From the NCBI GenBank assembly GCA_964617335.1, contig CAZTXG010000002.1:15912-79911 (forward strand): DNA of 64,000 nt. Direction: 5' to 3'. A program made the position numbers and the translations under genes. Shown piece after piece: positions 2,580 to 21,081 of the stretch (the first letter of the stretch is position 1; each line of letters opens with the position of its first letter). The notes below the pieces were generated by a model that saw nothing but the letters and a program-made list of their open reading frames with translations, did no database searches and was not told where the DNA came from. Origin of the DNA: an uncultured Oscillospiraceae bacterium (lineage in GTDB: Bacteria > Bacillota > Clostridia > Oscillospirales > Oscillospiraceae).

Positions 2580-3899
2580 CTAAGAGTAAATGCGTCTTCT
2601 AAAGGAAGGGGGTATGCCCATTTCATCGCGGTATTTTGCAACGGTGCGCCGGCTGACGTTTATGCCTGTGCGGCGCAGGGCATCCACTATTGCCTCATCG
2701 CTCATGGGGGACCTGCGGTCCTCGTTGTGGATTATGGCCTGAATACTGCTTTCAATGCCGATTTTTGTAATCAGGGGGTGGGAATCAACAGAACTTTTCG
2801 GGAAAAAGTAGTCCGTGGGGAACATCCCCCAGGAGCACTCCACATATTTGTCCTTTAAGGCACGGCTGACTGTGGATTCACTTCTGCCAATTTTCTCGGC
2901 AAGCTCTTTCCGGTTATAGGGCCGCAGAGACTCAGGGCCAAACTCGAAAAAATCACGCTGACTTGCAAGAAGCTGGGAAGCGCAGGCCATAAGGGTTTCG
3001 CAGCGCTGACGGATACTGTCTTTAAGCCACTGAGCCTTTTTCATATTATTGTCAAGAAAGCTTCGGACAGTTTCGTTGTCCGTCTCGTTATATATTTTAA
3101 TGTAGGTGTCATCGATAATTAAACTATCGGCGGCGATTTGGTTAAGCTCAACCACAAATTGACCGTCTTTTTTTATAATCCTTATATCCGGAGATATATA
3201 CTCATTTCCTGCAAGGCGCCCCTCAAGCATTAGGGGCTTGGGGTTCAAAGAGCGTATGGCCTGCTGGGCATTTACAACTCTATGGAGGGGGATGCCGGTT
3301 TTTCTGGCGATTTGGGGAAGCTTGTTTTTTCCCAAAAGCTCAAGATGGCTTTGTGCCACCTTCCATGCATCGCTGTCTTTAAGACCACGGCGCTCAAGCT
3401 GAAGCAGGATGCATTCTCTGGGGTTAAAGGCGCCGACTCCGGCAGGCTCCAAAGACTGAAGGGCATCTAAAGCTGTTTTAAGATCGTCAAGAGAAAGATG
3501 GGCTGCCTGAACCAGCCTTTCAACATCGTCATAGCAGAGGTAGCCGTTTTCGTCCAGCAGATATATAAGGGCATAGCCTATGCGCTGGATATGCTCGGGC
3601 AGCTTTAACATGGCAAGCTGGATGCGAAGTGACACTATGGGCGAATCATTGTCGTCTGTAACACGCTCGGATATATCGTCGCTGTCTCCGTATTCGGGAC
3701 GGAAGCGGGAGGAGCGGCGGCACTTTTCCGCATAATCTATGCTATCAAAGGTGATGACGGGGTTTTCCTCGATTTCTTTTACAAGGTACTCGTAAAGCTC
3801 TGCCGAGGGCATTTGCAAAACAGAAAGAGATTGGAGCATACGGGGAGACAGTATTTGCGCCTGCTCCTGAAGCTGCTGTGCGCCGAATCCATAATCCAT
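2580..3899 (-). CDS. rpoN: RNA polymerase sigma-54 factor
   Basis: 439 aa. Gln-rich N-terminus (GAQQLQEQAQILSPRMLQSLSVLQM) and a C-terminal RpoN box (SRRTVAKYRDEMGIP). Confidence 0.9.
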   Translation of the reverse strand: MDYGFGAQQLQEQAQILSPRMLQSLSVLQMPSAELYEYLVKEIEENPVITFDSIDYAEKCRRSSRFRPEYGDSDDISERVTDDNDSPIVSLRIQLAMLKLPEHIQRIGYALIYLLDENGYLCYDDVERLVQAAHLSLDDLKTALDALQSLEPAGVGAFNPRECILLQLERRGLKDSDAWKVAQSHLELLGKNKLPQIARKTGIPLHRVVNAQQAIRSLNPKPLMLEGRLAGNEYISPDIRIIKKDGQFVVELNQIAADSLIIDDTYIKIYNETDNETVRSFLDNNMKKAQWLKDSIRQRCETLMACASQLLASQRDFFEFGPESLRPYNRKELAEKIGRSESTVSRALKDKYVECSWGMFPTDYFFPKSSVDSHPLITKIGIESSIQAIIHNEDRRSPMSDEAIVDALRRTGINVSRRTVAKYRDEMGIPPSFRRRIYS

Positions 3900-9170: not shown

Positions 9171-9452
9171 ATGTAAATCCACCTTTTTTTGCTTATTCGA
9201 TTGTATGTCTCTTGAAGGTCAAAGTCAAGAGCATATAAAAGCCGCCTTGCTCATAGGGGGGCAAAATTAGAAAAAATCAAAGAGAAGCTGAAGATTAAAA
9301 ACAATACATTATTGCATGAATCCTTTGTCCCAACGCCGGAAGCAGCATGAATTTACTTGAAATATTATCCAAAAGTATTTAGCAACTTTTATATGGAACA
9401 ACAAATTTTTAGAGCAATTTTAACAAAAAATCAAAATGACTCACAAAATTTC

Positions 9453-9481
9453 TTGCACATCTTGCCATAGGGGAATAGAGT
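9453..9481 (+). promoter_or_regulatory. weak sigma-70-type promoter candidate for module 1
   Basis: TTGCAC (9453-9458), 17-nt spacer, TAGAGT (9476-9481), ~60 nt upstream of the ATG at 9545. Confidence 0.3.
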
Positions 9482-9544
9482 GTATCCGTATGGTGAAGAC
9501 AAACAGCAAATACAGGCTCTATAATTAAACACAGGAGGAGAATC

Positions 9545-10678
9545 ATGGACTACGGGAAACTATTTGAATCGGATATTTCCAGCGAAGCTGTCAAAAAGTG
9601 GCGGCAGCAGGGGAAAAAGGCCCTTGGAATAATCTGCTGTCATGTGCCGGAGGAAATCTTCCATGCGGCGGGCATTTTGCCTGTTCGCATGAGGGCTACG
9701 GGATGCGTGGATGCCAGCGAGGCTGAAATGTGGATGTCAAGCTTTAGCTGCAGCTTTGCTAAAAGTGTTCTTCAGTATTGGCTCGAGGGCAGATATGAGC
9801 TGGACGGCATTGTGGCTTCTGACGGCTGCATTATGGCCTCGCGCATTTACGACAATGCCGAGTATATTAACCGCACCCGAAACAAAGGGCAAACTATAAT
9901 ACAGATTGCAGCGCCGAGAAAGCACACAGAAAGAACGGTTCCCTTTTATGTGAGCGAGCTTCGTGACCTTATAGAGGCTCTGGAAAATCTGACGGGAGAA
10001 AAGATTACGGAGGAAAAGCTCAGAGCTTCTGTTGAGGTTTATAATGAAGCCAGAGAGCTTATAAAAGAGCTTTATGAGCTGCGAAAAGAAAAAAACCCCG
10101 TAATAAGCGGAGTCGAAGCCCTTCAAATAACTCTGTCTAAAACAAATATGCCCATAGAGGAGTACATAGAACTGCTCAAGGCATTTTTGGCAGACGCAAA
10201 AAACCGCAAGCCTATAGATTCATGGCGGGCCCGCCTTATGATAATCGGCTCTGCTCTGGATGATCCCGAATATCTGCGGGTTATTGAAGATAAGGGAGGG
10301 CTTATAGTCACCGACACCCTCTGCTTTGGCCAAATGCAATTCCGTGACCCAATGGAGCAAAAAGATGATGAAGACATACTCACAACAATTGCCGATTACT
10401 ATCTAAGGCGTGTTGTCTGCCCGAGGATGATGGACGTACATGAGGAGCTTCACGATTTCATAATAAACTCCGTAAAGGAGTTTTCTTGTGACGGTGTGAT
10501 TTATCAAAGGATGCAAAACTGCGAGTGCTGGGGCGGAGAAAACATCCTTCTGGAGAAAAAGCTGAAAGATGCCGGCATACCTCAGATAACGGTTGAACGT
10601 GAACAGCAAATGGCAAATGCCGCCCAGCTTGCGGTGCGGGCCGAAGCATTTATAGAAATGGTGGAAAAGGAGGAATAA
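9545..10678 (+). CDS. BCR / 2-hydroxyacyl-CoA-dehydratase family, small catalytic subunit (BzdN/BcrC/HgdB-like), module 1
   Basis: 377 aa. Cys motifs CCHVP, FSCSF, DGC, CFG, CPR and CECWGGE are shared with the paralogs at 12350 and 17381. AGGAGG RBS. Confidence 0.85.
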   Translation: MDYGKLFESDISSEAVKKWRQQGKKALGIICCHVPEEIFHAAGILPVRMRATGCVDASEAEMWMSSFSCSFAKSVLQYWLEGRYELDGIVASDGCIMASRIYDNAEYINRTRNKGQTIIQIAAPRKHTERTVPFYVSELRDLIEALENLTGEKITEEKLRASVEVYNEARELIKELYELRKEKNPVISGVEALQITLSKTNMPIEEYIELLKAFLADAKNRKPIDSWRARLMIIGSALDDPEYLRVIEDKGGLIVTDTLCFGQMQFRDPMEQKDDEDILTTIADYYLRRVVCPRMMDVHEELHDFIINSVKEFSCDGVIYQRMQNCECWGGENILLEKKLKDAGIPQITVEREQQMANAAQLAVRAEAFIEMVEKEE

Positions 10679-12151: not shown

Positions 12152-12180
12152 TTGACAATCATCTTTTCTGACTGTAAAAT
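12152..12180 (+). promoter_or_regulatory. sigma-70-type promoter for module 2
   Basis: TTGACA (12152-12157), 17-nt spacer, TAAAAT (12175-12180). Leaves a ~165-nt leader before the ATG at 12350. Confidence 0.6.
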
Positions 12181-13488: not shown

Positions 13489-14796
13489 ATGAGTGAAAAA
13501 AAAGTTAGAGATACTAGATTAGAAGACGCGGTAATGCGCGGCGAGCTTTCTGTTTTCGATTTCTGCTGCCAGAAGATTGAAGGACAGATTGAGCGTATGA
13601 AGGAAAGAAACCCCGACCTCCTTTGGACTCTTGACATTCAGTCTGTCATGTGGCACAACTACCGTGACGCTCAGAAGTCCGGTAAGAAGCTTGTCTTCTT
13701 CGGCGGTCCGGTTCCCGTGGATATCATAGTCGCTTTTGACTGTATCCCCGTATACCTTGACACAATTCCCATCCGTCTTTCCCCCAACCCCGTCCTGACA
13801 GGTAAGTTCATCGACTCTGCCGAAAGATATGTTCCCCAGACCACCTGCGGTCTGTGCAAAACCTATCTCGGAACCGCCCTTGAGGACCAGTACGGCTCCA
13901 AGCCCGACGCTTTCGTCTATTCCGCAGTTCCCTGCGACTCCTCCCGTGTTGTTTATCCCAACATGGAAAGATTGTTCGACGTTCCCACCTTCGCTTTTGA
14001 CTATCCCTACCGCCGTGACGCCCGTGGCCACGAATATCTCGTCGCTCAGACCGAGAAGTTCGTTGAGTTCATGGAAGAGCTGACAGGCACAAAGCTTGAC
14101 TGGGAAAAGCTTAAAGTCGCAATGGGCCACTCCAACAACACCTATGAGCTTCAGGGTAAGTGCGCCGACCTGCGTAAGCGTAAGCCCTGCCCCCTGCCCG
14201 GACGTATGCTGGTTCTCAACGGAACCTCCAACGCCATGGCCTGCTTCCCCGAGATGGCAGAGCTTCTCCAGAAGGAGCTTGAAGTCGGCGAAATGCTCTA
14301 TGAGCTTGGCATGGGCCCCTGCCCCAATGGTGAAAAGCACCGTGCGGCCCTTCTCCAGAATATGCTTTGGTCCAGCTCCGGCGTTATGGACTGGCTTGAA
14401 AAAGAATATGATACCGTTGCTGTTATGGACGCCTTCGGCTTCCAGCACGGTGACCTGTATCAGGATCTTGACGATAGGCATCACTGCTTCACCGTCATGG
14501 CAAAGAAGATGCAGAACAACCCCATGATTCACGGTGCCGCAGGCCCCTCCGAGAACTTTGTATACCTCGTAGACAAGATTTTCGAAGAGTACGACCCAGA
14601 CGTATCCATGTTTGTCGGACATATCGGCTGCAAGCACACTTGGGCTTCCGCAAAGATGGTTACCGACATGATTCAGGATAAGTACGGCATTCCCTCTCTG
14701 TATCTCGACGTTGACGGCATCGACGGCCGTTATAAGTCCCCCGACGAGATTAAGGGTCAAATCGCTGAATATATGGACACTGTTGTCAATAAGTAA
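13489..14796 (+). CDS. BCR / 2-hydroxyacyl-CoA-dehydratase family, large catalytic subunit, module 2
   Basis: 435 aa paralog of 10681 and 18519 (TCGLCK, VPCDSSR, KPCPLPG, GHIGCKHTW). AAGGAGG RBS. Confidence 0.85.
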   Translation: MSEKKVRDTRLEDAVMRGELSVFDFCCQKIEGQIERMKERNPDLLWTLDIQSVMWHNYRDAQKSGKKLVFFGGPVPVDIIVAFDCIPVYLDTIPIRLSPNPVLTGKFIDSAERYVPQTTCGLCKTYLGTALEDQYGSKPDAFVYSAVPCDSSRVVYPNMERLFDVPTFAFDYPYRRDARGHEYLVAQTEKFVEFMEELTGTKLDWEKLKVAMGHSNNTYELQGKCADLRKRKPCPLPGRMLVLNGTSNAMACFPEMAELLQKELEVGEMLYELGMGPCPNGEKHRAALLQNMLWSSSGVMDWLEKEYDTVAVMDAFGFQHGDLYQDLDDRHHCFTVMAKKMQNNPMIHGAAGPSENFVYLVDKIFEEYDPDVSMFVGHIGCKHTWASAKMVTDMIQDKYGIPSLYLDVDGIDGRYKSPDEIKGQIAEYMDTVVNK

Positions 14797-14821
14797 GCGA
14801 GGAAAACTACAAAGCCATAAA

Positions 14822-14857
14822 GGGACGGAGGCGCAAAGGCGCTTCCGTTCTTTTTTG
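14822..14857 (+). terminator. rho-independent terminator after module 2
   Basis: GGACGGAGGCGC pairs with GCGCTTCCGTTC (G-U wobbles), followed by TTTTTT (14851-14856). Confidence 0.7.
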
Positions 14858-14957
14858 GGAACTGAAAAATGAAAACCGGCATTGCAAAAATAAGCCTATA
14901 TTTAAGCATATAAAAAGAGCGGGCAATAGTGTATCTCGCATAAAGTGTGGACGTGTC

Positions 14958-15082
14958 TTGACATGGAATTGACACAGTTTTGAAGCGTTATTGACTGTGT
15001 TAGGCAGGATACAACTATTGCGCCTTGACCTTAATTAAAAATTTGATTAAGTCGATATTGCGGAAACGTCTCTTGTCGACAA
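14958..15082 (+). promoter_or_regulatory. candidate upstream activator region (phased TTGAC repeats plus a palindrome)
   Basis: TTGACA at 14958 and 14969, TTGACT at 14991 and TTGACC at 15025, with spacings of 11, 22 and 34 bp. Inverted repeat ACACAGT (14972-14978) / ACTGTGT (14994-15000). Perfect 10-bp palindrome TTGTCGACAA at 15073-15082. All lie 70-190 bp upstream of the -24 element. Confidence 0.35.
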
Positions 15083-15148
15083 AATGTTCCACAAAAATCA
15101 TATACCTAATTTAGCAAGAAGCAACCAAAAAAATAAGAACGAGTAAGT

Positions 15149-15164
15149 TGGCACAAGCTTTGCT
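15149..15164 (+). promoter_or_regulatory. sigma-54 (-24/-12) promoter
   Basis: TGGCAC (15149-15154), 5 nt (aagct), then TTGCT (15160-15164). This is an exact match to TGGCAC-N5-TTGCW spacing. It lies ~80 nt upstream of the ATG at 15246. Confidence 0.75.
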
Positions 15165-15245
15165 CTTTATAATAATAGACCCTAATGTCGTCCCTATACA
15201 AATAGACGGTAAAGGACGGCGTAGCATATAAAGGAGGAAGAAGTA

Positions 15246-16016
15246 ATGATAACCGTTGGAATCGATTGCGGCAGCCAGAACACCAAGGGTGCTGTCCTGA
15301 AGGATGGTAAGGTTGTTGCAAAGACCATAGCTCCCACTGCGTTTGACGCGGATATTGCGGCTGAGAACGTATTAAAGGAACTTTTGGAATCAGCAGGAAT
15401 AAGCAGAGAAGAAGTTGACAGCATTGTTATCACCGGCATAGGACGTGAGTTAGTCAAATGGGGCGACAAGGAAGTCAACGAGGTTGGCGCGGCCGTTCGC
15501 GGGGCGAGATTTGCCCTGCCCGATACGGAAACTGTCATTGACATGGGAGCAGACAGCTGCCGTGTAATCCGTCTCAACCCGGACGGAACAGTTATGAAGT
15601 ACGAGGCAAACGACAAGTGCGCCTCTGGAGCAGGCACCTTTATAGAGGCCATGGCTCGGGCGCTTCAAATAACCACAGAGGAAATGGGCGACTTTTCCCT
15701 GCGCCACACCAAGGATTTAGCAACCAACGCCCAGTGTGTTGTTTTTGCAGAGTCCGAGGTCATTTCCCTCATCCACGCCAAAGAAACCCGAGAGGACATA
15801 GCTTTCGGCGTACATATGGGAATATCGAACCGCATAGCGTCTATGATCCGCAGGGTGGGCCTGACAGACAAATACACCATGATAGGCGGCCCCGCTTATA
15901 ACAAGGGTCTTGTCCGCTGTATGTCCGATGTTTTTGAAAGAGAAATCAGAGTACCCGAGGATAACCAGCTTCTCAGCGCTATAGGCGCTGCGATCTTCGG
16001 CACGGAGAATAAGTAA
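15246..16016 (+). CDS. BadF/BadG/BcrA/BcrD-family ATPase (BzdP/BcrD/HgdC-like), divergent copy
   Basis: 256 aa. N-terminal actin-fold phosphate-1 motif MITVGIDCGSQNTKG. Bridging-cluster Cys candidates are NDKCASGAG and NAQCVVFAESE. The phosphate-2 motif is degenerate (DMGADSCRV). Confidence 0.85.
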   Translation: MITVGIDCGSQNTKGAVLKDGKVVAKTIAPTAFDADIAAENVLKELLESAGISREEVDSIVITGIGRELVKWGDKEVNEVGAAVRGARFALPDTETVIDMGADSCRVIRLNPDGTVMKYEANDKCASGAGTFIEAMARALQITTEEMGDFSLRHTKDLATNAQCVVFAESEVISLIHAKETREDIAFGVHMGISNRIASMIRRVGLTDKYTMIGGPAYNKGLVRCMSDVFEREIRVPEDNQLLSAIGAAIFGTENK

Positions 16017-16032
16017 ACGGAGGTAAGAAACC

Positions 16033-16932
16033 ATGGCTGAAATAGAAAAAGTAGAATATTGGAGATGGAAGGAATCCAACTGGAAAAACCCTGACATCCC
16101 TGACTGGCACGGAAGCCTTATAACCGCCGGTGTAGATATCGGCTCTACCAGTACCCAGGCTGTTATCATGGCCGACGGCATACCCTATGCATATTCCAAC
16201 ATGAGAACCGGCTCTAACAGCCCCGATTCCGCAATCGACGCGATTAACTGGGCAATGAAGGACACCGGATTGACACTTGAGGATATAACCTATACAATAG
16301 GTACGGGATACGGACGTGTAAACGTACCCTTTTCCAACAAAACCGTAACAGAAATAACCTGCCACTCAAAAGGCGCAAACTTTATTTACGGACCTACCAC
16401 CCGCACGATTCTCGATATGGGCGGACAGGACTGTAAAGCCATACACTGCGATGAAAACGGCGCTGTTACATCTTTTATGATGAACGACAAGTGCGCTGCC
16501 GGTACAGGCCGCGGCATGGAAGTTATTGCAAACCTTCTTGCTGTCCGTGTTGAGGATATCGGCAGGATGTCCTTTGAAATCGATGAAGAGCCGCCCCCGG
16601 TTTCCTCCACCTGTGTTATTTTCGCAAAAAGTGAAGCTACAAAGCTTATGCGTGCAGGCTGGACAAAGGAAAAGGTTCTGGCGGCATATTGTCATGCTAT
16701 GGCACTGCGTGTTGTGCGCCTTCTCGAGCGTAACGGCATGGAGCTTGACTTCGCCATCACAGGCGGTATTGCCAAGAATATAGGCGTTGTAAAACGCATA
16801 GAACGACTAATGGGAGTTACCGCTCTTGAACCTAAATGGGACACCCAGATTGCCGGCGCAGCCGGTGCTGCTCTTATTGCCAAGGACCTTGTTGAGAGAA
16901 AAAGAGCCAGAGAGGCAGTTGCAGCAAAATAA
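16033..16932 (+). CDS. BadF/BadG/BcrA/BcrD-family ATPase (BzdQ/BcrA/HgdC-like) with a Trp-rich N-terminal extension
   Basis: 299 aa. Motifs GVDIGSTSTQ, DMGGQDCKAI, NDKCAAGTGRG and SSTCVIFAKSE. Carries a ~35-aa N-terminal extension (EYWRWKESNWKNPDIPDW). Confidence 0.85.
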   Translation: MAEIEKVEYWRWKESNWKNPDIPDWHGSLITAGVDIGSTSTQAVIMADGIPYAYSNMRTGSNSPDSAIDAINWAMKDTGLTLEDITYTIGTGYGRVNVPFSNKTVTEITCHSKGANFIYGPTTRTILDMGGQDCKAIHCDENGAVTSFMMNDKCAAGTGRGMEVIANLLAVRVEDIGRMSFEIDEEPPPVSSTCVIFAKSEATKLMRAGWTKEKVLAAYCHAMALRVVRLLERNGMELDFAITGGIAKNIGVVKRIERLMGVTALEPKWDTQIAGAAGAALIAKDLVERKRAREAVAAK

Positions 16933-16995
16933 GGGACAAAGCTTATACACAGAACCTTGAGAACTAAAAGTGCAAGATGGAAGGAGGCGAAAGCC

Positions 16996-17271
16996 GTGAT
17001 AGCAAACTATGGCTATGAGGACGGTTCCGGTCACTATTACATCAAGATAGACACCGCCAAATGTGCCGAGTGTTCTGACAAGCCTTGTATAAAGGCGTGT
17101 CCGGAGCAGCTTTACGTTACAGAACTGGATGATTTTGACGACGAAGTTATAATCATACGGGAAGATGCCCGCAACACCTTGCAAACAAACTGCGCTAACT
17201 GCAAAGCCGACCAAAAAACGGAGCTTTGCAGACAAGTCTGTCCCTCGGACGCTATTGGATTCTCATGGTGA
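16996..17271 (+). CDS. 2x[4Fe-4S] ferredoxin (BzdM-position; extended Cys spacing)
   Basis: In-frame GTG at 16996, 8 nt after AGGAGG (16982-16987); the ORF track starts at 16957. Motifs are CAECSDKPCIKACP (Cx2Cx4Cx3CP) and CANCKADQKTELCRQVCP (Cx2Cx8Cx3CP). Confidence 0.8.
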   Translation: MIANYGYEDGSGHYYIKIDTAKCAECSDKPCIKACPEQLYVTELDDFDDEVIIIREDARNTLQTNCANCKADQKTELCRQVCPSDAIGFSW

Positions 17272-17380
17272 GAAGCGCCACATCAAATTTTAACTTTCGG
17301 ATGCCCCGGCACCCTGGGCCAAGCCGGGATATCCGAGAGCTTTAAAATTACCTTTTCCAATAACATAAAGGAGGAAACAC

Positions 17381-18502
17381 ATGAGTTACCAGAAATTATT
17401 CGAGACCAAAATTTCAGGCGAAGCCGCAAAAGCTTGGCAGGCACAAGGCAAGAAAGCCATAGGTTATGTATGCTGTCATGTTCCTGAAGAAATCTTCTAT
17501 GCGGCGGACGTTCTCCCCATCCGCCTTCGGGCAACGGACTGCGTTGACAGCAGCGAGGCGGAGGCATGGATGTCCAGCTTCAGCTGCAGCTTCGCACGCT
17601 CGATTCTCCAGTATCTTATCGACGGCACCTATAAGCTTGACGGTCTTGTACAGACTGACGGCTGCATGATGCCCGCCCGCATTATGGACAACTGGGAGCA
17701 TATTTCCGAGAAGGAAGGAAAAAACCAGTTTACCCATTTTATAGGCGCTCCCCGCATAACAAACGATATTTCTATCGGATTCTACAAGTCTGAGCTTCAG
17801 GAGCTGGTTGATGCCGTTTCTAAATTCTCCGGAGTTGAGATTACAGACGAGGCTCTTAAGGCAGCTATTGTCAAGACCAACGAAATGCGCGCCCTTATAG
17901 ACCAGGTTTATGAGCTGCGCCGTGCGGAAAATCCCGTTGTTTCCGGTGCCGAAGTTCTCTCCATCACCCTCGCCGAGTGCGACCATCACATTGACGACTA
18001 TATCCAGATGCTCAAGGATTTCCTCGCAGACGCGAAAAACCGCAAGCCCATCGAGGCTCGCGCACGTCTTATGATTATTGGCTCCGCTCTTGACAACCCC
18101 GAATACATAAAGGTTATCGAGGAAAAGGGCGGCCTTATAGTTGCAGACGACCTCTGCTTCGGCAGACGTGCTTTCGGCCCCCAGCTTGAAGTTGATGACA
18201 GTGATGTTCTCGGCTCCATTGCAAAGTACTATCTTGAGCGCAACGTATGTCCCCGCAGTCTGGACAACCGTCCTACTATGCATAAGGAAATCGCCGACAT
18301 CGCTAAAGAATACAATGTTCAGGGCGTTGTTTACCAGAAGATGCAAAACTGCGAATGCTGGGGCGGAGAAGCTTATTATCTGGAGCCTGACCTTAAGGAC
18401 ATCGGCATTCCCATGCTTCAGCTTGAGCGTGAGGAGCAGATGGCAAACGCAGGTCAGCTCGCGGTTCGTGCCGAAGCTTTCATCGAAATGTTAGAGAAGT
18501 AA
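17381..18502 (+). CDS. BCR / 2-hydroxyacyl-CoA-dehydratase family, small catalytic subunit, module 3
   Basis: 373 aa paralog of 9545 and 12350 with the same Cys set. AGGAGG RBS. Confidence 0.85.
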   Translation: MSYQKLFETKISGEAAKAWQAQGKKAIGYVCCHVPEEIFYAADVLPIRLRATDCVDSSEAEAWMSSFSCSFARSILQYLIDGTYKLDGLVQTDGCMMPARIMDNWEHISEKEGKNQFTHFIGAPRITNDISIGFYKSELQELVDAVSKFSGVEITDEALKAAIVKTNEMRALIDQVYELRRAENPVVSGAEVLSITLAECDHHIDDYIQMLKDFLADAKNRKPIEARARLMIIGSALDNPEYIKVIEEKGGLIVADDLCFGRRAFGPQLEVDDSDVLGSIAKYYLERNVCPRSLDNRPTMHKEIADIAKEYNVQGVVYQKMQNCECWGGEAYYLEPDLKDIGIPMLQLEREEQMANAGQLAVRAEAFIEMLEK

Positions 18503-18518
18503 GAAGGAGGAATAAATA

Positions 18519-19844
18519 ATGGCTAAACCTAAACAGAACTTTGACCCGACAAAGCCGGTTAATATGATAGAGCTTACCTGTGAGCAGGTTGACAGTATTT
18601 ATCAGCATATGCTTTCAAAGGGTATGCCCGAAATCATGTGGACCGTTGAAATTCAGAAGTTCACATGGGAAGAAGTCCGTGACGCTGCGAAAAACGGCAA
18701 AAAGCTTGTTGCCTTTGGCGGTCCGGTTCCCGTTACCATCATCCGTGCTTTTGACTGCGTTCCTTTCTTCCTTGATACTATCCCCACCCGTATCGCTTCC
18801 ATGGAAGACCTCTGCGGACGCTTTATTGACGAAACTGAAAAGTTTGCTCCCCAGAGTATGTGCGCTATCGACAAGGCACAGCTTGGTGTTATGCTCAAGG
18901 GCGAACTTGGCGTTAAGGTAGACGCCTTTGTTCACGCCACCGTCCCCTGCGACTCTGCCCGTATTGCCTATCCCCTTATGGAGCGTCTTATGGACTGCCC
19001 CAGCTACACCTTTGACTGCCCCTTCCGTCATGACGACAAGGGCTTTAAGTATGTAGCAGACCAGATTGAAGCCTTCATCCCCTTCATGGAAGAGCTTACC
19101 GGTCTTAAATGGGACGACGAGCGCAAGGCGAAGTTTAAACAGATAAACGAAGAGTCCAACAAGGCTTATGAGCTGCTTATCCAGCTTGCCGAGCTCCGCA
19201 AGAAAAAGCCCTGCGTACTTCCCGGACGTATGCTCGTTCTTAACGAGATTATCGCTCCTCTTGCTGGAACCCCTGAAGTTACCGAAATGCTCCAGACTCA
19301 GCTTGACATGGGCAATATGCTTGCCGACATGGGAATGACCGCCACAAGATGCCCCGAGGAGCGTTATCGTGTATGTCTCATGCAGAATATGCTCTGGTCA
19401 AACACCGGCATCATGGACTGGATGGAAAAGACCTATGGCGCTATCACCGTTATGGACGGCTTCGGATATCAAGACGGCGTAATTATTCAGGATCTCGACA
19501 ACTGGGAAGCTGTTAAGTATCAGACCGCTAAGTCTATGCTTCTTGTTCCCATGATTCACGGTGCCACCGGCCCCACTGAATACTGGCTCAAGGTCATCGA
19601 TAAGATGTACGAGGAGTTCGGCGTAAACGTATCCATCTTCATGGGTCACGTTGGCTGCAAGCACACTTGGGCATCGGGCAAAATCGTCACCGACTACATC
19701 CAGGAAAAGTATGGTTTACCCACCCTGTATGTGGACGTCGACGCAATCGACCCCCGCTACAAGTCAAACGACGAGCTGCGTGCGCAGATCGGCGAATACA
19801 TGGAATCCGTTGTGGGAGCACATAACTTCACAAAGGAAGCCTAA
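18519..19844 (+). CDS. BCR / 2-hydroxyacyl-CoA-dehydratase family, large catalytic subunit, module 3
   Basis: 441 aa paralog of 10681 and 13489 (MCAIDK, VPCDSAR, KPCVLPG, GHVGCKHTW). AAGGAGG RBS. Confidence 0.85.
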   Translation: MAKPKQNFDPTKPVNMIELTCEQVDSIYQHMLSKGMPEIMWTVEIQKFTWEEVRDAAKNGKKLVAFGGPVPVTIIRAFDCVPFFLDTIPTRIASMEDLCGRFIDETEKFAPQSMCAIDKAQLGVMLKGELGVKVDAFVHATVPCDSARIAYPLMERLMDCPSYTFDCPFRHDDKGFKYVADQIEAFIPFMEELTGLKWDDERKAKFKQINEESNKAYELLIQLAELRKKKPCVLPGRMLVLNEIIAPLAGTPEVTEMLQTQLDMGNMLADMGMTATRCPEERYRVCLMQNMLWSNTGIMDWMEKTYGAITVMDGFGYQDGVIIQDLDNWEAVKYQTAKSMLLVPMIHGATGPTEYWLKVIDKMYEEFGVNVSIFMGHVGCKHTWASGKIVTDYIQEKYGLPTLYVDVDAIDPRYKSNDELRAQIGEYMESVVGAHNFTKEA

Positions 19845-19868
19845 GCACCTTAAACTAAAAGAAAAATG

Positions 19869-19902
19869 CCGTGACCGCGGGAAATTAATTCTGCGGTCAC
19901 GG
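19869..19902 (+). other. 10-bp stem-loop between module 3 and the CooC-like gene
   Basis: CCGTGACCGC (19869-19878) pairs with GCGGTCACGG (19893-19902) across a 14-nt loop. No U-tract follows, so it is probably a processing or stability element rather than a terminator. Confidence 0.3.
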
Positions 19903-19944
19903 TACATAGAAAACAACCTTTTTTAGAAAAGCGAGGGACCAAAA

Positions 19945-20706
19945 ATGGAAAAAATTAAAACTATAGCTGTCACAGGAAAAGGCGGAACCGGAAAAACCGT
20001 TGTATCCACCCTTCTTATCCGCGCTTTAAGCGAGCGCTTCCCGGGCAAGGTTCTCGCGATTGACGCGGACTCGGCTATGAGCCTGTGCTACACCACCGGA
20101 CTTAAGGTTGAAAAAACCGTAAGTAATCTCCGCACCGAACTTTTGGGTTCACGGCATGCCCGCGAGCAGCTTGATGCCGGCCCCACAAAAAACCTTATGC
20201 GCGGCATACTTGCCCATGGTGACGGCTTTGACCTTCTGACCATGGGAAGGCCTGAGGAGCCGGGCTGCTTCTGCGCCTGCAACGAGCTTCTCCGCTACGG
20301 AATTGACACCCTTATAGAGGACTATGACTATTGCATAGTTGACGGCGAAGCCGGCCCCGAACAGCTCAATCGCCGGGTTATGAAAAGTGTTGACCTGCTG
20401 CTGGTTATGGCGGATATGTCCGCTAGAAGCCTTCAGACTGCTGCAGGCATACTTGAAGTCGCCAAGGGCGGCGAAAACAACATAGACGTTAAGCAGGCAG
20501 GCCTTGTATTAAACCGCGTTCGCGGCGACGAGCCGAAGGATGAGCTTTTGAAAAAGGTTGGCCTTGAAGTATTGGCAGAGCTGCCTGAGGATGCCCTTGT
20601 CAACAAATATGACCGTGACAGCACTTCTCTCTTTGAGCTGCCCATGGATAGTGCCTGCCCCACAGCCATCCGTGAAATGCTGAAAAAGCTGATACCTGAG
20701 TTTTAA
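19945..20706 (+). CDS. CooC/AcsF-type MinD-family P-loop ATPase (metallocentre maturation factor-like)
   Basis: 253 aa. Deviant Walker A with signature Lys (TGKGGTGKTVVS). CxC-containing motif EEPGCFCACNELL, as in CooC nickel-insertion ATPases. Confidence 0.7.
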   Translation: MEKIKTIAVTGKGGTGKTVVSTLLIRALSERFPGKVLAIDADSAMSLCYTTGLKVEKTVSNLRTELLGSRHAREQLDAGPTKNLMRGILAHGDGFDLLTMGRPEEPGCFCACNELLRYGIDTLIEDYDYCIVDGEAGPEQLNRRVMKSVDLLLVMADMSARSLQTAAGILEVAKGGENNIDVKQAGLVLNRVRGDEPKDELLKKVGLEVLAELPEDALVNKYDRDSTSLFELPMDSACPTAIREMLKKLIPEF

Positions 20707-20730
20707 GCTGTACAATTAAGGAGTAAGCAC

Positions 20731-21081
20731 ATGAGCAAGACAGCGGCGCAAGGCGCACAGGAAAACCACAACCATTCCCGGGTCACGATTCACAGCCACG
20801 GCGAAAATGGGGTTCCCCATGTCCACACCAACAAAAAGGCGGTGCTGGGCCGTCTCGCTAAGGCGAGGGGGCATCTTGATTCCGTTATGACCATGATAGA
20901 AAACGACAGGGATTGCGCTGAGGTTTTAGTGCAAATTGCAGCCGTCCGGTCAGCGATAAATAATGCCGGCAAGGTTATTTTGCAGGACCATATCGCGGAA
21001 TGTGTCATAGAAGCGGTTTCCTGCGGTGACTATGAAAAAATAGAGGACCTTAACAAGGCAATAGAACGATTTATGAAGTAA
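20731..21081 (+). CDS. CsoR/RcnR-family (DUF156) metal-sensing transcriptional repressor with a His-rich N-terminal extension
   Basis: 116 aa. Core is KKAVLGRLAKARGHLDSVMTMIEN. Cys-25 residues-His-3 residues-Cys arrangement (DRDC...QDHIAEC), as in the x-C-H-C CsoR fingerprint. N-terminus is ENHNHSRVTIHSHGENGVPHVH. Confidence 0.8.
   Translation: MSKTAAQGAQENHNHSRVTIHSHGENGVPHVHTNKKAVLGRLAKARGHLDSVMTMIENDRDCAEVLVQIAAVRSAINNAGKVILQDHIAECVIEAVSCGDYEKIEDLNKAIERFMK

Follow-up and report, generated by a model that had tools for sequence, protein, structure and literature searches.

The closest precedent for the promoter described here, P1, is the predicted LeuR/sigma-54 control of the Clostridioides difficile had operon. 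In that work, hadAIBC-acdB-etfBA, which specifies 2-hydroxyisocaproyl-CoA dehydratase, was predicted to be controlled by LeuR and sigma-54 (Nie, Dong & Yang 2019, PMC6615313). The upstream activator sites (UAS) of Clostridia typically lie 100–250 bp upstream, and sites of the form TGT-N10-12-ACA are given for NifA, FhlA and 15 Clostridial activator groups (PMC6615313). For activators with a Fis-type HTH, the usual binding site is a dyad that is recognised by paired D domains (PMC7175178). In Proteobacteria, sigma-54 activators of anaerobic aromatic catabolism are reported, among them EtpR of Aromatoleum aromaticum EbN1 (PMC4630880) and RedR1 and RedR2 of A. anaerobium (PMC10084136). Finally, the 4LRX and 4LRZ records describe Escherichia coli DhaR(N) crystallised in complex with DhaK and DhaL.

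We analysed a window of 64,000 nt (the whole stretch of DNA under study, G000:C2:15912–79911) from the 1.8-Mb MAG of an uncultured Oscillospiraceae species. Pfam and NCBIfam assignments identify a cluster with three HGD-D subunit pairs, two BcrAD-type ATPases (the second of which scores above the NCBIfam cut-off for BzdQ), a ferredoxin, a CooC-like ATPase and a CsoR-like repressor. The genes for the two BcrAD/BzdQ-type ATPases and the ferredoxin, the two genes of HGD-D module 3 and the CooC-like and CsoR-like genes make up an operon on the forward strand (15246–21081), throughout which intergenic gaps are at most 110 nt. A spacer of 449 bp separates the end of module 2 at 14796 from the ATG of the first ATPase gene at 15246, and it contains an intrinsic terminator (14822–14857, +) that would end the module-2 transcription unit. 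A simple terminator scanner did not list this element; it was recovered by folding (−30.6 kcal/mol, z = −5.7, with none of 200 shuffles folding as well, and UUUUUU immediately after), which bears out the good terminator that the original prediction had placed upstream of the promoter. The gene order from module 2 to the ATPases is kept across the genus, with a module-2-like gene always upstream. Inside the operon, a strong hairpin, GCCGTGACCGC...GCGGTCACGG, with no U-tract beside it, lies in the spacer that separates module 3 from the CooC-like gene (19844–19945, +) and may be a site of processing or partial termination.

The core of P1, TGGCACaagctTTGCT, reads TGGCAC-N5-TTGCT and occupies positions 15149–15164 (+). 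It is intergenic and correctly oriented, with the GG of the −24 element (15150–15151) and the GC of the −12 element (15162–15163) exactly 10 bp apart, and it lies 82 nt upstream of the ATG at 15246, in agreement with the exact TGGCAC-aagct-TTGCT previously read about 80 nt before the first ATPase gene. The predicted transcription start is near 15174–15177. P1 agrees with the Clostridiales sigma-54 consensus TTGGCATNNNNNTTGCT (PMC6615313). A scan of the 1.8-Mb genome for further TGGCAC-N5-TTGCW sites, which had been proposed as a check, returned no second exact match, and composition alone predicts about 1.5 such sites per genome. With up to one mismatch allowed, the window holds 2 sites compared with 2.9 expected. 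A single exact match to the core is thus close to what chance would give, and the support for P1 therefore rests on conservation. Scored with a position weight matrix (PWM) made from the promoters of the genus, with the spacer columns flattened, P1 ranks first genome-wide (24.0 bits); P1 and a second promoter, P2, are the only TGGCAY-N5-TTGCT sites in the genome.

Orthologues of the ATPase were detected in 20 congeners by DNA and protein searches, and those with at least 100 bp of upstream sequence, 18 other species, entered the promoter comparison. All 18 keep TGGCA[CT]-N5-TTGCT at 87–108 nt before the ATG. When the sequences are aligned without gaps on the motif, TGGCA and TTTGCT stand out as the peaks of information content, and the five spacer bases and most flanking positions vary. 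Invariant −24 and −12 elements with a variable N5 and variable flanks are the signature of sigma-54. Extra enhancer-binding-protein genes of other species adjoin TGGCAY-N5-TTGCT sites of their own, indicating that this pattern marks real promoters in the genus. Judged from sequence comparison, chance falls far short of explaining the position of P1 and its retention within the genus. In one species (G020, 90% complete), rpoN was not found, yet the activator is present and TGGCATATTTTTTGCT is kept at P1; this species is also one of three that have neither the −24 box nor the upstream array at P2. The absence of rpoN from this assembly could reflect an assembly gap or an early loss of the system.

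The sigma-54 gene itself is in the window. rpoN (2580–3899, −) is assigned by TIGR02395 (347 bits), three Pfam sigma-54 domains and the RpoN box SRRTVAKYR, and its distance from P1 is 11.2 kb, close to the 11 kb first estimated. It is present in 27 of 29 congeners, whereas a sample of 200 genomes from the order has it in only about 12; in six congeners (G016, G001, G010, G019, G008 and G015) it is on the same contig as the cluster, 10–45 kb away. The BzdQ-like ATPase was undetected at E ≤ 1e-60 in 198 of the 200 sampled genomes of the order, and this ATPase and the activator described below were found essentially only in this genus. The proximity of rpoN to the cluster despite its rarity in the order, together with the restriction of the ATPase and the activator to the genus, suggests that the three genes form a package that was acquired or retained together.

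As originally noted, no enhancer-binding protein is encoded in the window, and all PF00158 matches are on other contigs. The genome-wide scan for GAFTGA proteins that had been recommended revealed exactly one true enhancer-binding protein, a 655-aa protein encoded on contig C1 (G000:C1:49715–51682, −), which gave the one strong PF00158 match (233–237 bits). Four weaker matches (23–28 bits) were rejected as generic AAA+ proteins. The C1 activator has the sequence ESGAFTGA, Walker A and B motifs, an AAA lid and a C-terminal HTH_8 domain (residues 616–652), and GAFTGA is invariant in 17 orthologues. Full-length orthologues (64–96% identity) occur in 27 of 29 congeners, and the two species that lack them are represented by MAGs with a completeness of 78% and 80%. 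The activator is the sole enhancer-binding protein of about a dozen species, this one included.

In the AlphaFold model, residues 1–320 of the activator form a GAF-PAS sensor. Model quality is poor over the AAA+ domain (mean pLDDT 58), and only the N-terminal 320 residues were therefore used. The best structural match of this region is E. coli DhaR(N) (4LRZ, Foldseek E = 1e-13), and a match to 4LRX was also obtained by sequence (E = 3e-4). The NCBIfam DhaR model aligns over residues 21–653 and provides the best full-length resemblance, with all NCBIfam scores of the protein below the curated cut-offs. A DhaR orthologue (NF008485) was considered and rejected, because 305 bits is far below the cut-off of 551; no dha genes are near. 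The activator gene never adjoins the cluster, and a distance of 1.7 Mb separates the loci in a genome of two contigs. No TGGC-N7-TGCW site occurs within 20 kb around the gene, so the activator is not linked to a target of its own at that locus. The gene begins a conserved trio (G000:C1:46846–51682; L006 6847–11683, −) that continues with a CobW/HypB-like GTPase and a 696-aa OYE-type flavoenzyme (Oxidored_FMN plus Pyr_redox_2, enoate-reductase-like). The trio is syntenic in nearly all congeners, and transketolase genes are divergent from the activator.

The second promoter, P2 (TTGGCATGGAGTTTGCTT; G000:C6:58311–58326, −), has the second-best PWM score (19.8 bits). It is also intergenic, 99 nt before the first gene of an operon for an enoyl-CoA hydratase, a 3-hydroxyacyl-CoA dehydrogenase/hydratase fusion and a thiolase, and it is conserved in 23 of 26 orthologous loci. 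The three species without TGGCA at P2 are also without the array there, losses that may not be independent events. These three species retain TTGCTTGTATAAT, with a −35-like box, TTGAAA, in two of them. More generally, an invariant TGTATAAT, an extended −10, follows the −12 box of P2 (G000:C6:58290–58335, −; L168 about 10290–10335; orthologues L138–L162), and cTTGCAt precedes that box at an 18-bp spacing; because of these two elements, a sigma-70 promoter seems to overlap the sigma-54 promoter at this site. In two congeners (L163 in G017:C51 and L164 in G012:C185), an HGD-D large-subunit gene is immediately followed by a second enoyl-CoA hydratase gene copy, a physical link between the two sets of regulon functions.

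Neither a sigma-54 site nor an array was found before module 1, module 2 or the CoA-transferase gene. The sigma-70-like promoters that had been assigned to modules 1 and 2 fared differently: TTGACA-17-TAAAAT at 12152–12180, before module 2, was confirmed, whereas the module-1 site at 9453–9481 was not recovered, and the promoter scan lists 9420–9449 and 9496–9525 in its vicinity. The combination of no array or sigma-54 site before either module with a good sigma-70-like promoter at module 2 fits the earlier proposal that these modules are controlled separately.

Upstream of P1, a phased array that is a probable enhancer extends over 14948–15002 (+), from −201 to −147 bp relative to the −24 box, and so falls within the range typical of Clostridial UAS. 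In this window its units are TGGACGT (14948), TGACATG (14959), TGACACA (14970), TGAAGCG (14981) and TGACTGT (14992), with an inverted copy, ACTGTGTTA, overlapping the last of them. Their 11-bp spacing places the units on the same face of the helix. The original prediction had instead described four TTGAC[ATC] repeats, at 14958, 14969, 14991 and 15025. All four are present and the first three belong to the array, but the unit was misread: across the genus, the consensus is wTGAnACAAw, with a 7-bp unit TGAnACA repeated at a strict 11-bp period and followed by an inverted copy, and the degenerate units at 14948 and 14981 had been missed. The fourth repeat, TTGACC at 15025–15030 (+), is outside the conserved array, at −124 from TGGCA, where the genus shows no peak. 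The inverted repeat ACACAGT (14972–14978) and ACTGTGT (14994–15000) is present as described.

The array is a cluster without a second copy in the genome and has a fixed position in the genus. Four TTGAC within 75 bp occur once genome-wide, at this array, among a total of 3997 TTGAC copies, and five TGR at an exact 11-bp period also occur once, compared with 0.1 expected. To place the units across species, we counted the pattern G[AGC]NAC[AG] in 5-bp bins measured from the T of TGGCA in 18 P1 and 22 P2 regions. Units concentrate in bins −200, −190 and −180 at both promoters and in bin −170 at P1 only, with almost none elsewhere, and the arrays of P1 and P2 are thus equidistant from the −24 element. 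In both sets of regions an inverted unit follows the direct repeats, at about −170 to −155. Direct repeats predominate among the units, and the last pair alone forms a dyad, with variable spacing; reading the array by eye, we found no TGT-N10-ACA dyads of the NifA type in it. The array of this genome is the most degenerate of the genus, and only one of its units matches the strict pattern. Because of this degeneracy, a strict genome scan for three phased units missed it and returned the array of P2 and one match in a coding region, against a chance expectation of 1.1.

Several other elements occupy the remainder of the spacer. The palindrome TTGTCGACAA (15073–15082, +) is present, as predicted, but is not conserved: it is common only to this genome and its closest relative (L008), and the anchored alignment shows it to be the variant that this lineage has at the 5′ edge of a conserved block, where other species have TTGAaTGAACAAG. 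That promoter-proximal block (15091–15132, +) has high-information columns at −57 to −52, −39 to −35 and −25 to −17 and the genus consensus CACAAAA-N12-TTTTGTG followed by TACTAAATT; its second arm is degenerate in this genome (TTTAG at 15110–15114). The block is absent at P2 and specific to P1, and it may be the site of a second regulator or of a DNA bend. The dyad CACAAA-N14-TTTGTG is not enriched in the genome (1 match compared with 0.7 expected), and it was rejected as the site of a global regulator on this ground. Downstream of P1, both the single-sequence fold and the alignment fold place a conserved hairpin, ATGTCGTCC ... GGACGGCGT, in the 5′ UTR (15185–15222, +), with compensatory changes in five of seven pairs in the alignment fold. 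On its 3′ side are a conserved AGCATA and then the ribosome-binding site AGGAGG (15232–15237). An Rfam search of 14700–15400 returned only sub-threshold chance matches, and none for this hairpin.

Taken as a whole, P1 is a well-supported but ordinary kind of gene switch, and it is very probably a working sigma-54 promoter that is switched on from a distance. Both promoters co-occur with rpoN and the activator, and the spacing of the elements is fixed. Conservation in 18 of 18 species, an intact rpoN and a single enhancer-binding protein support the earlier idea that the unit of ATPases, ferredoxin, module 3, CooC and CsoR is gated by a sigma-54 promoter and its upstream activator sites. We consider it probable that P1 is a functional sigma-54 promoter that is opened from the array by the single C1 activator, drives 15246–21081 and shares its regulon with P2. 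From sequence evidence we infer both the start at P1 and the binding of the activator to the array. In the mechanism that we propose, sigma-54-RNA polymerase would sit at P1 as a closed complex, isolated from module 2 by the terminator at 14822–14857. The C1 activator, with its GAF-PAS sensor, its AAA+ domain with GAFTGA and its Fis-type HTH, would most likely assemble on the TGAnACA units at 14948–15002, reach P1 by looping about 175 bp of DNA and open the closed complex, and transcription would then start near 15175 and cover the operon 15246–21081. The same activator and array arrangement would also serve P2, and a single activator for both promoters would mean that the reductase ‘engine’ and the downstream beta-oxidation steps are induced together.

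Two alternatives concern whether P1 drives the operon at all. The operon could be read from a sigma-70 promoter, TTGGCA-17-AATAAT at 15148–15176, which matches 10 of 12 positions with a 17-bp spacer and would make the overlapping sigma-54-like sequence a coincidence of the kind expected once per genome even for an exact consensus. This reading is highly improbable, because the −10-like hexamer is unconserved (most congeners have TAGCTG, AAGCTG or TTATAC there) and because TTGCT would be spacer sequence, yet it is invariant; moreover, one such site in 600 bp compares with 1.6 in shuffled sequence. Still less credible is that P1 is an inactive relic and that the ATPase operon depends on transcripts that read through from module 2. 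The conserved order from module 2 to the ATPases would suit such read-through, but a strong terminator stands between the two units, and purifying selection across the genus acts on the promoter and the array as well as on rpoN and the activator.

A third alternative accepts P1 and questions what binds the array. The TGAnACA units could be occupied by another regulator, such as a winged-helix response regulator, and the enhancer-binding protein could then use the proximal block at 15091–15132 or no fixed site. Winged-helix response regulators typically read 7-bp direct repeats at an 11-bp period, and the array is built from direct repeats, not from dyads of the kind that Fis-type HTH dimers usually bind. 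A limited literature search found no report of a direct-repeat enhancer for an enhancer-binding protein, although such reports may exist, and the second strongly conserved block, with its dyad CACAAA-N14-TTTGTG, is nearer to the promoter. Against this, the proximal block is missing from P2, whereas the array is the sole element besides −24/−12 that is common to P1 and P2, where it keeps an equal distance from −24; it was lost together with the −24 box in three species, its distance is within the 100–250-bp UAS range (PMC6615313), and each array closes with an inverted unit, which provides at least one dyad. We therefore regard a different occupant of the array as unlikely. The restriction to these two promoters, the distance and the joint loss with TGGCA at P2 lead us to assign the array, with moderate confidence, as the putative binding site of the C1 activator.

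If the C1 activator does act from the array, the arrangement would be an unusual enhancer grammar, in which three or four 7-bp units, arranged head-to-tail every 11 bp, and one inverted unit are locked within about 1 bp at −200 to −167 and read by an unlinked activator that is present genus-wide. The regulon would be minimal, with one activator and two promoters that co-induce the ATPase ‘engine’ shared by the three modules of a benzoyl-CoA-reductase-like enzyme and the subsequent beta-oxidation genes, and sigma-54 would be kept in a 1.8-Mb genome for that single pathway. We put forward this fuller reading tentatively, as one with slightly less than an even chance of being right.

These results provide a concrete and testable regulatory map for an uncharacterised system that resembles benzoyl-CoA reductases and 2-hydroxyacyl-CoA dehydratases, in an uncultured genus of Oscillospiraceae. 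According to this map, the ATPase/ferredoxin/module-3 operon and the beta-oxidation operon would form one sigma-54 regulon under a single sensor, with modules 1 and 2 outside it. The ligand of the sensor would point to the substrate of the pathway, and a system of one activator and two promoters is simple enough to be reconstructed in a laboratory host as a way of identifying the inducer. As an enhancer of phased direct repeats at a fixed position, the array would be a small addition to what is known of how activators are positioned.

Set beside described systems, the points of interest are modest and comprise the unlinked single activator, the two-promoter regulon and the phased direct-repeat enhancer. 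Like P1, the LeuR/had system belongs to Clostridia and has a TTGGCA-N6-TTGCT promoter plus upstream activator sites, an operon of the same enzyme superfamily (HGD-D subunits with an ATP-driven BcrAD-type activator) and a ligand-type enhancer-binding protein with a Fis-type HTH. It differs in that the activator here is not LeuR and is encoded far from its targets, P1 drives a two-ATPase (BzdQ-like) unit that is common to three catalytic modules, and the upstream sites are phased direct repeats. Enhancer-binding proteins of the DhaR/AcoR type share the GAF-PAS-AAA+-HTH order of the C1 activator, the N-terminal 300 residues of which match the GAF-PAS structure of DhaR(N) (4LRZ/4LRX); unlike DhaR, the activator has the GTPase and the OYE-type flavoenzyme as its neighbours in place of dha genes. 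EtpR and RedR1/RedR2, as reported, resemble the C1 activator in being substrate-specific enhancer-binding proteins that serve several sigma-54 promoters of one anaerobic degradation pathway; these proteobacterial proteins differ from it in phylum, sensor domain and target enzymes. The multi-site enhancers of NifA and FhlA are similar to the array in having several sites 100–250 bp upstream and an ACA/TGT core in their units, whereas the array is head-to-tail at an 11-bp period, has a single inverted copy at its promoter-proximal end and is built without the TGT-N10-ACA dyad.
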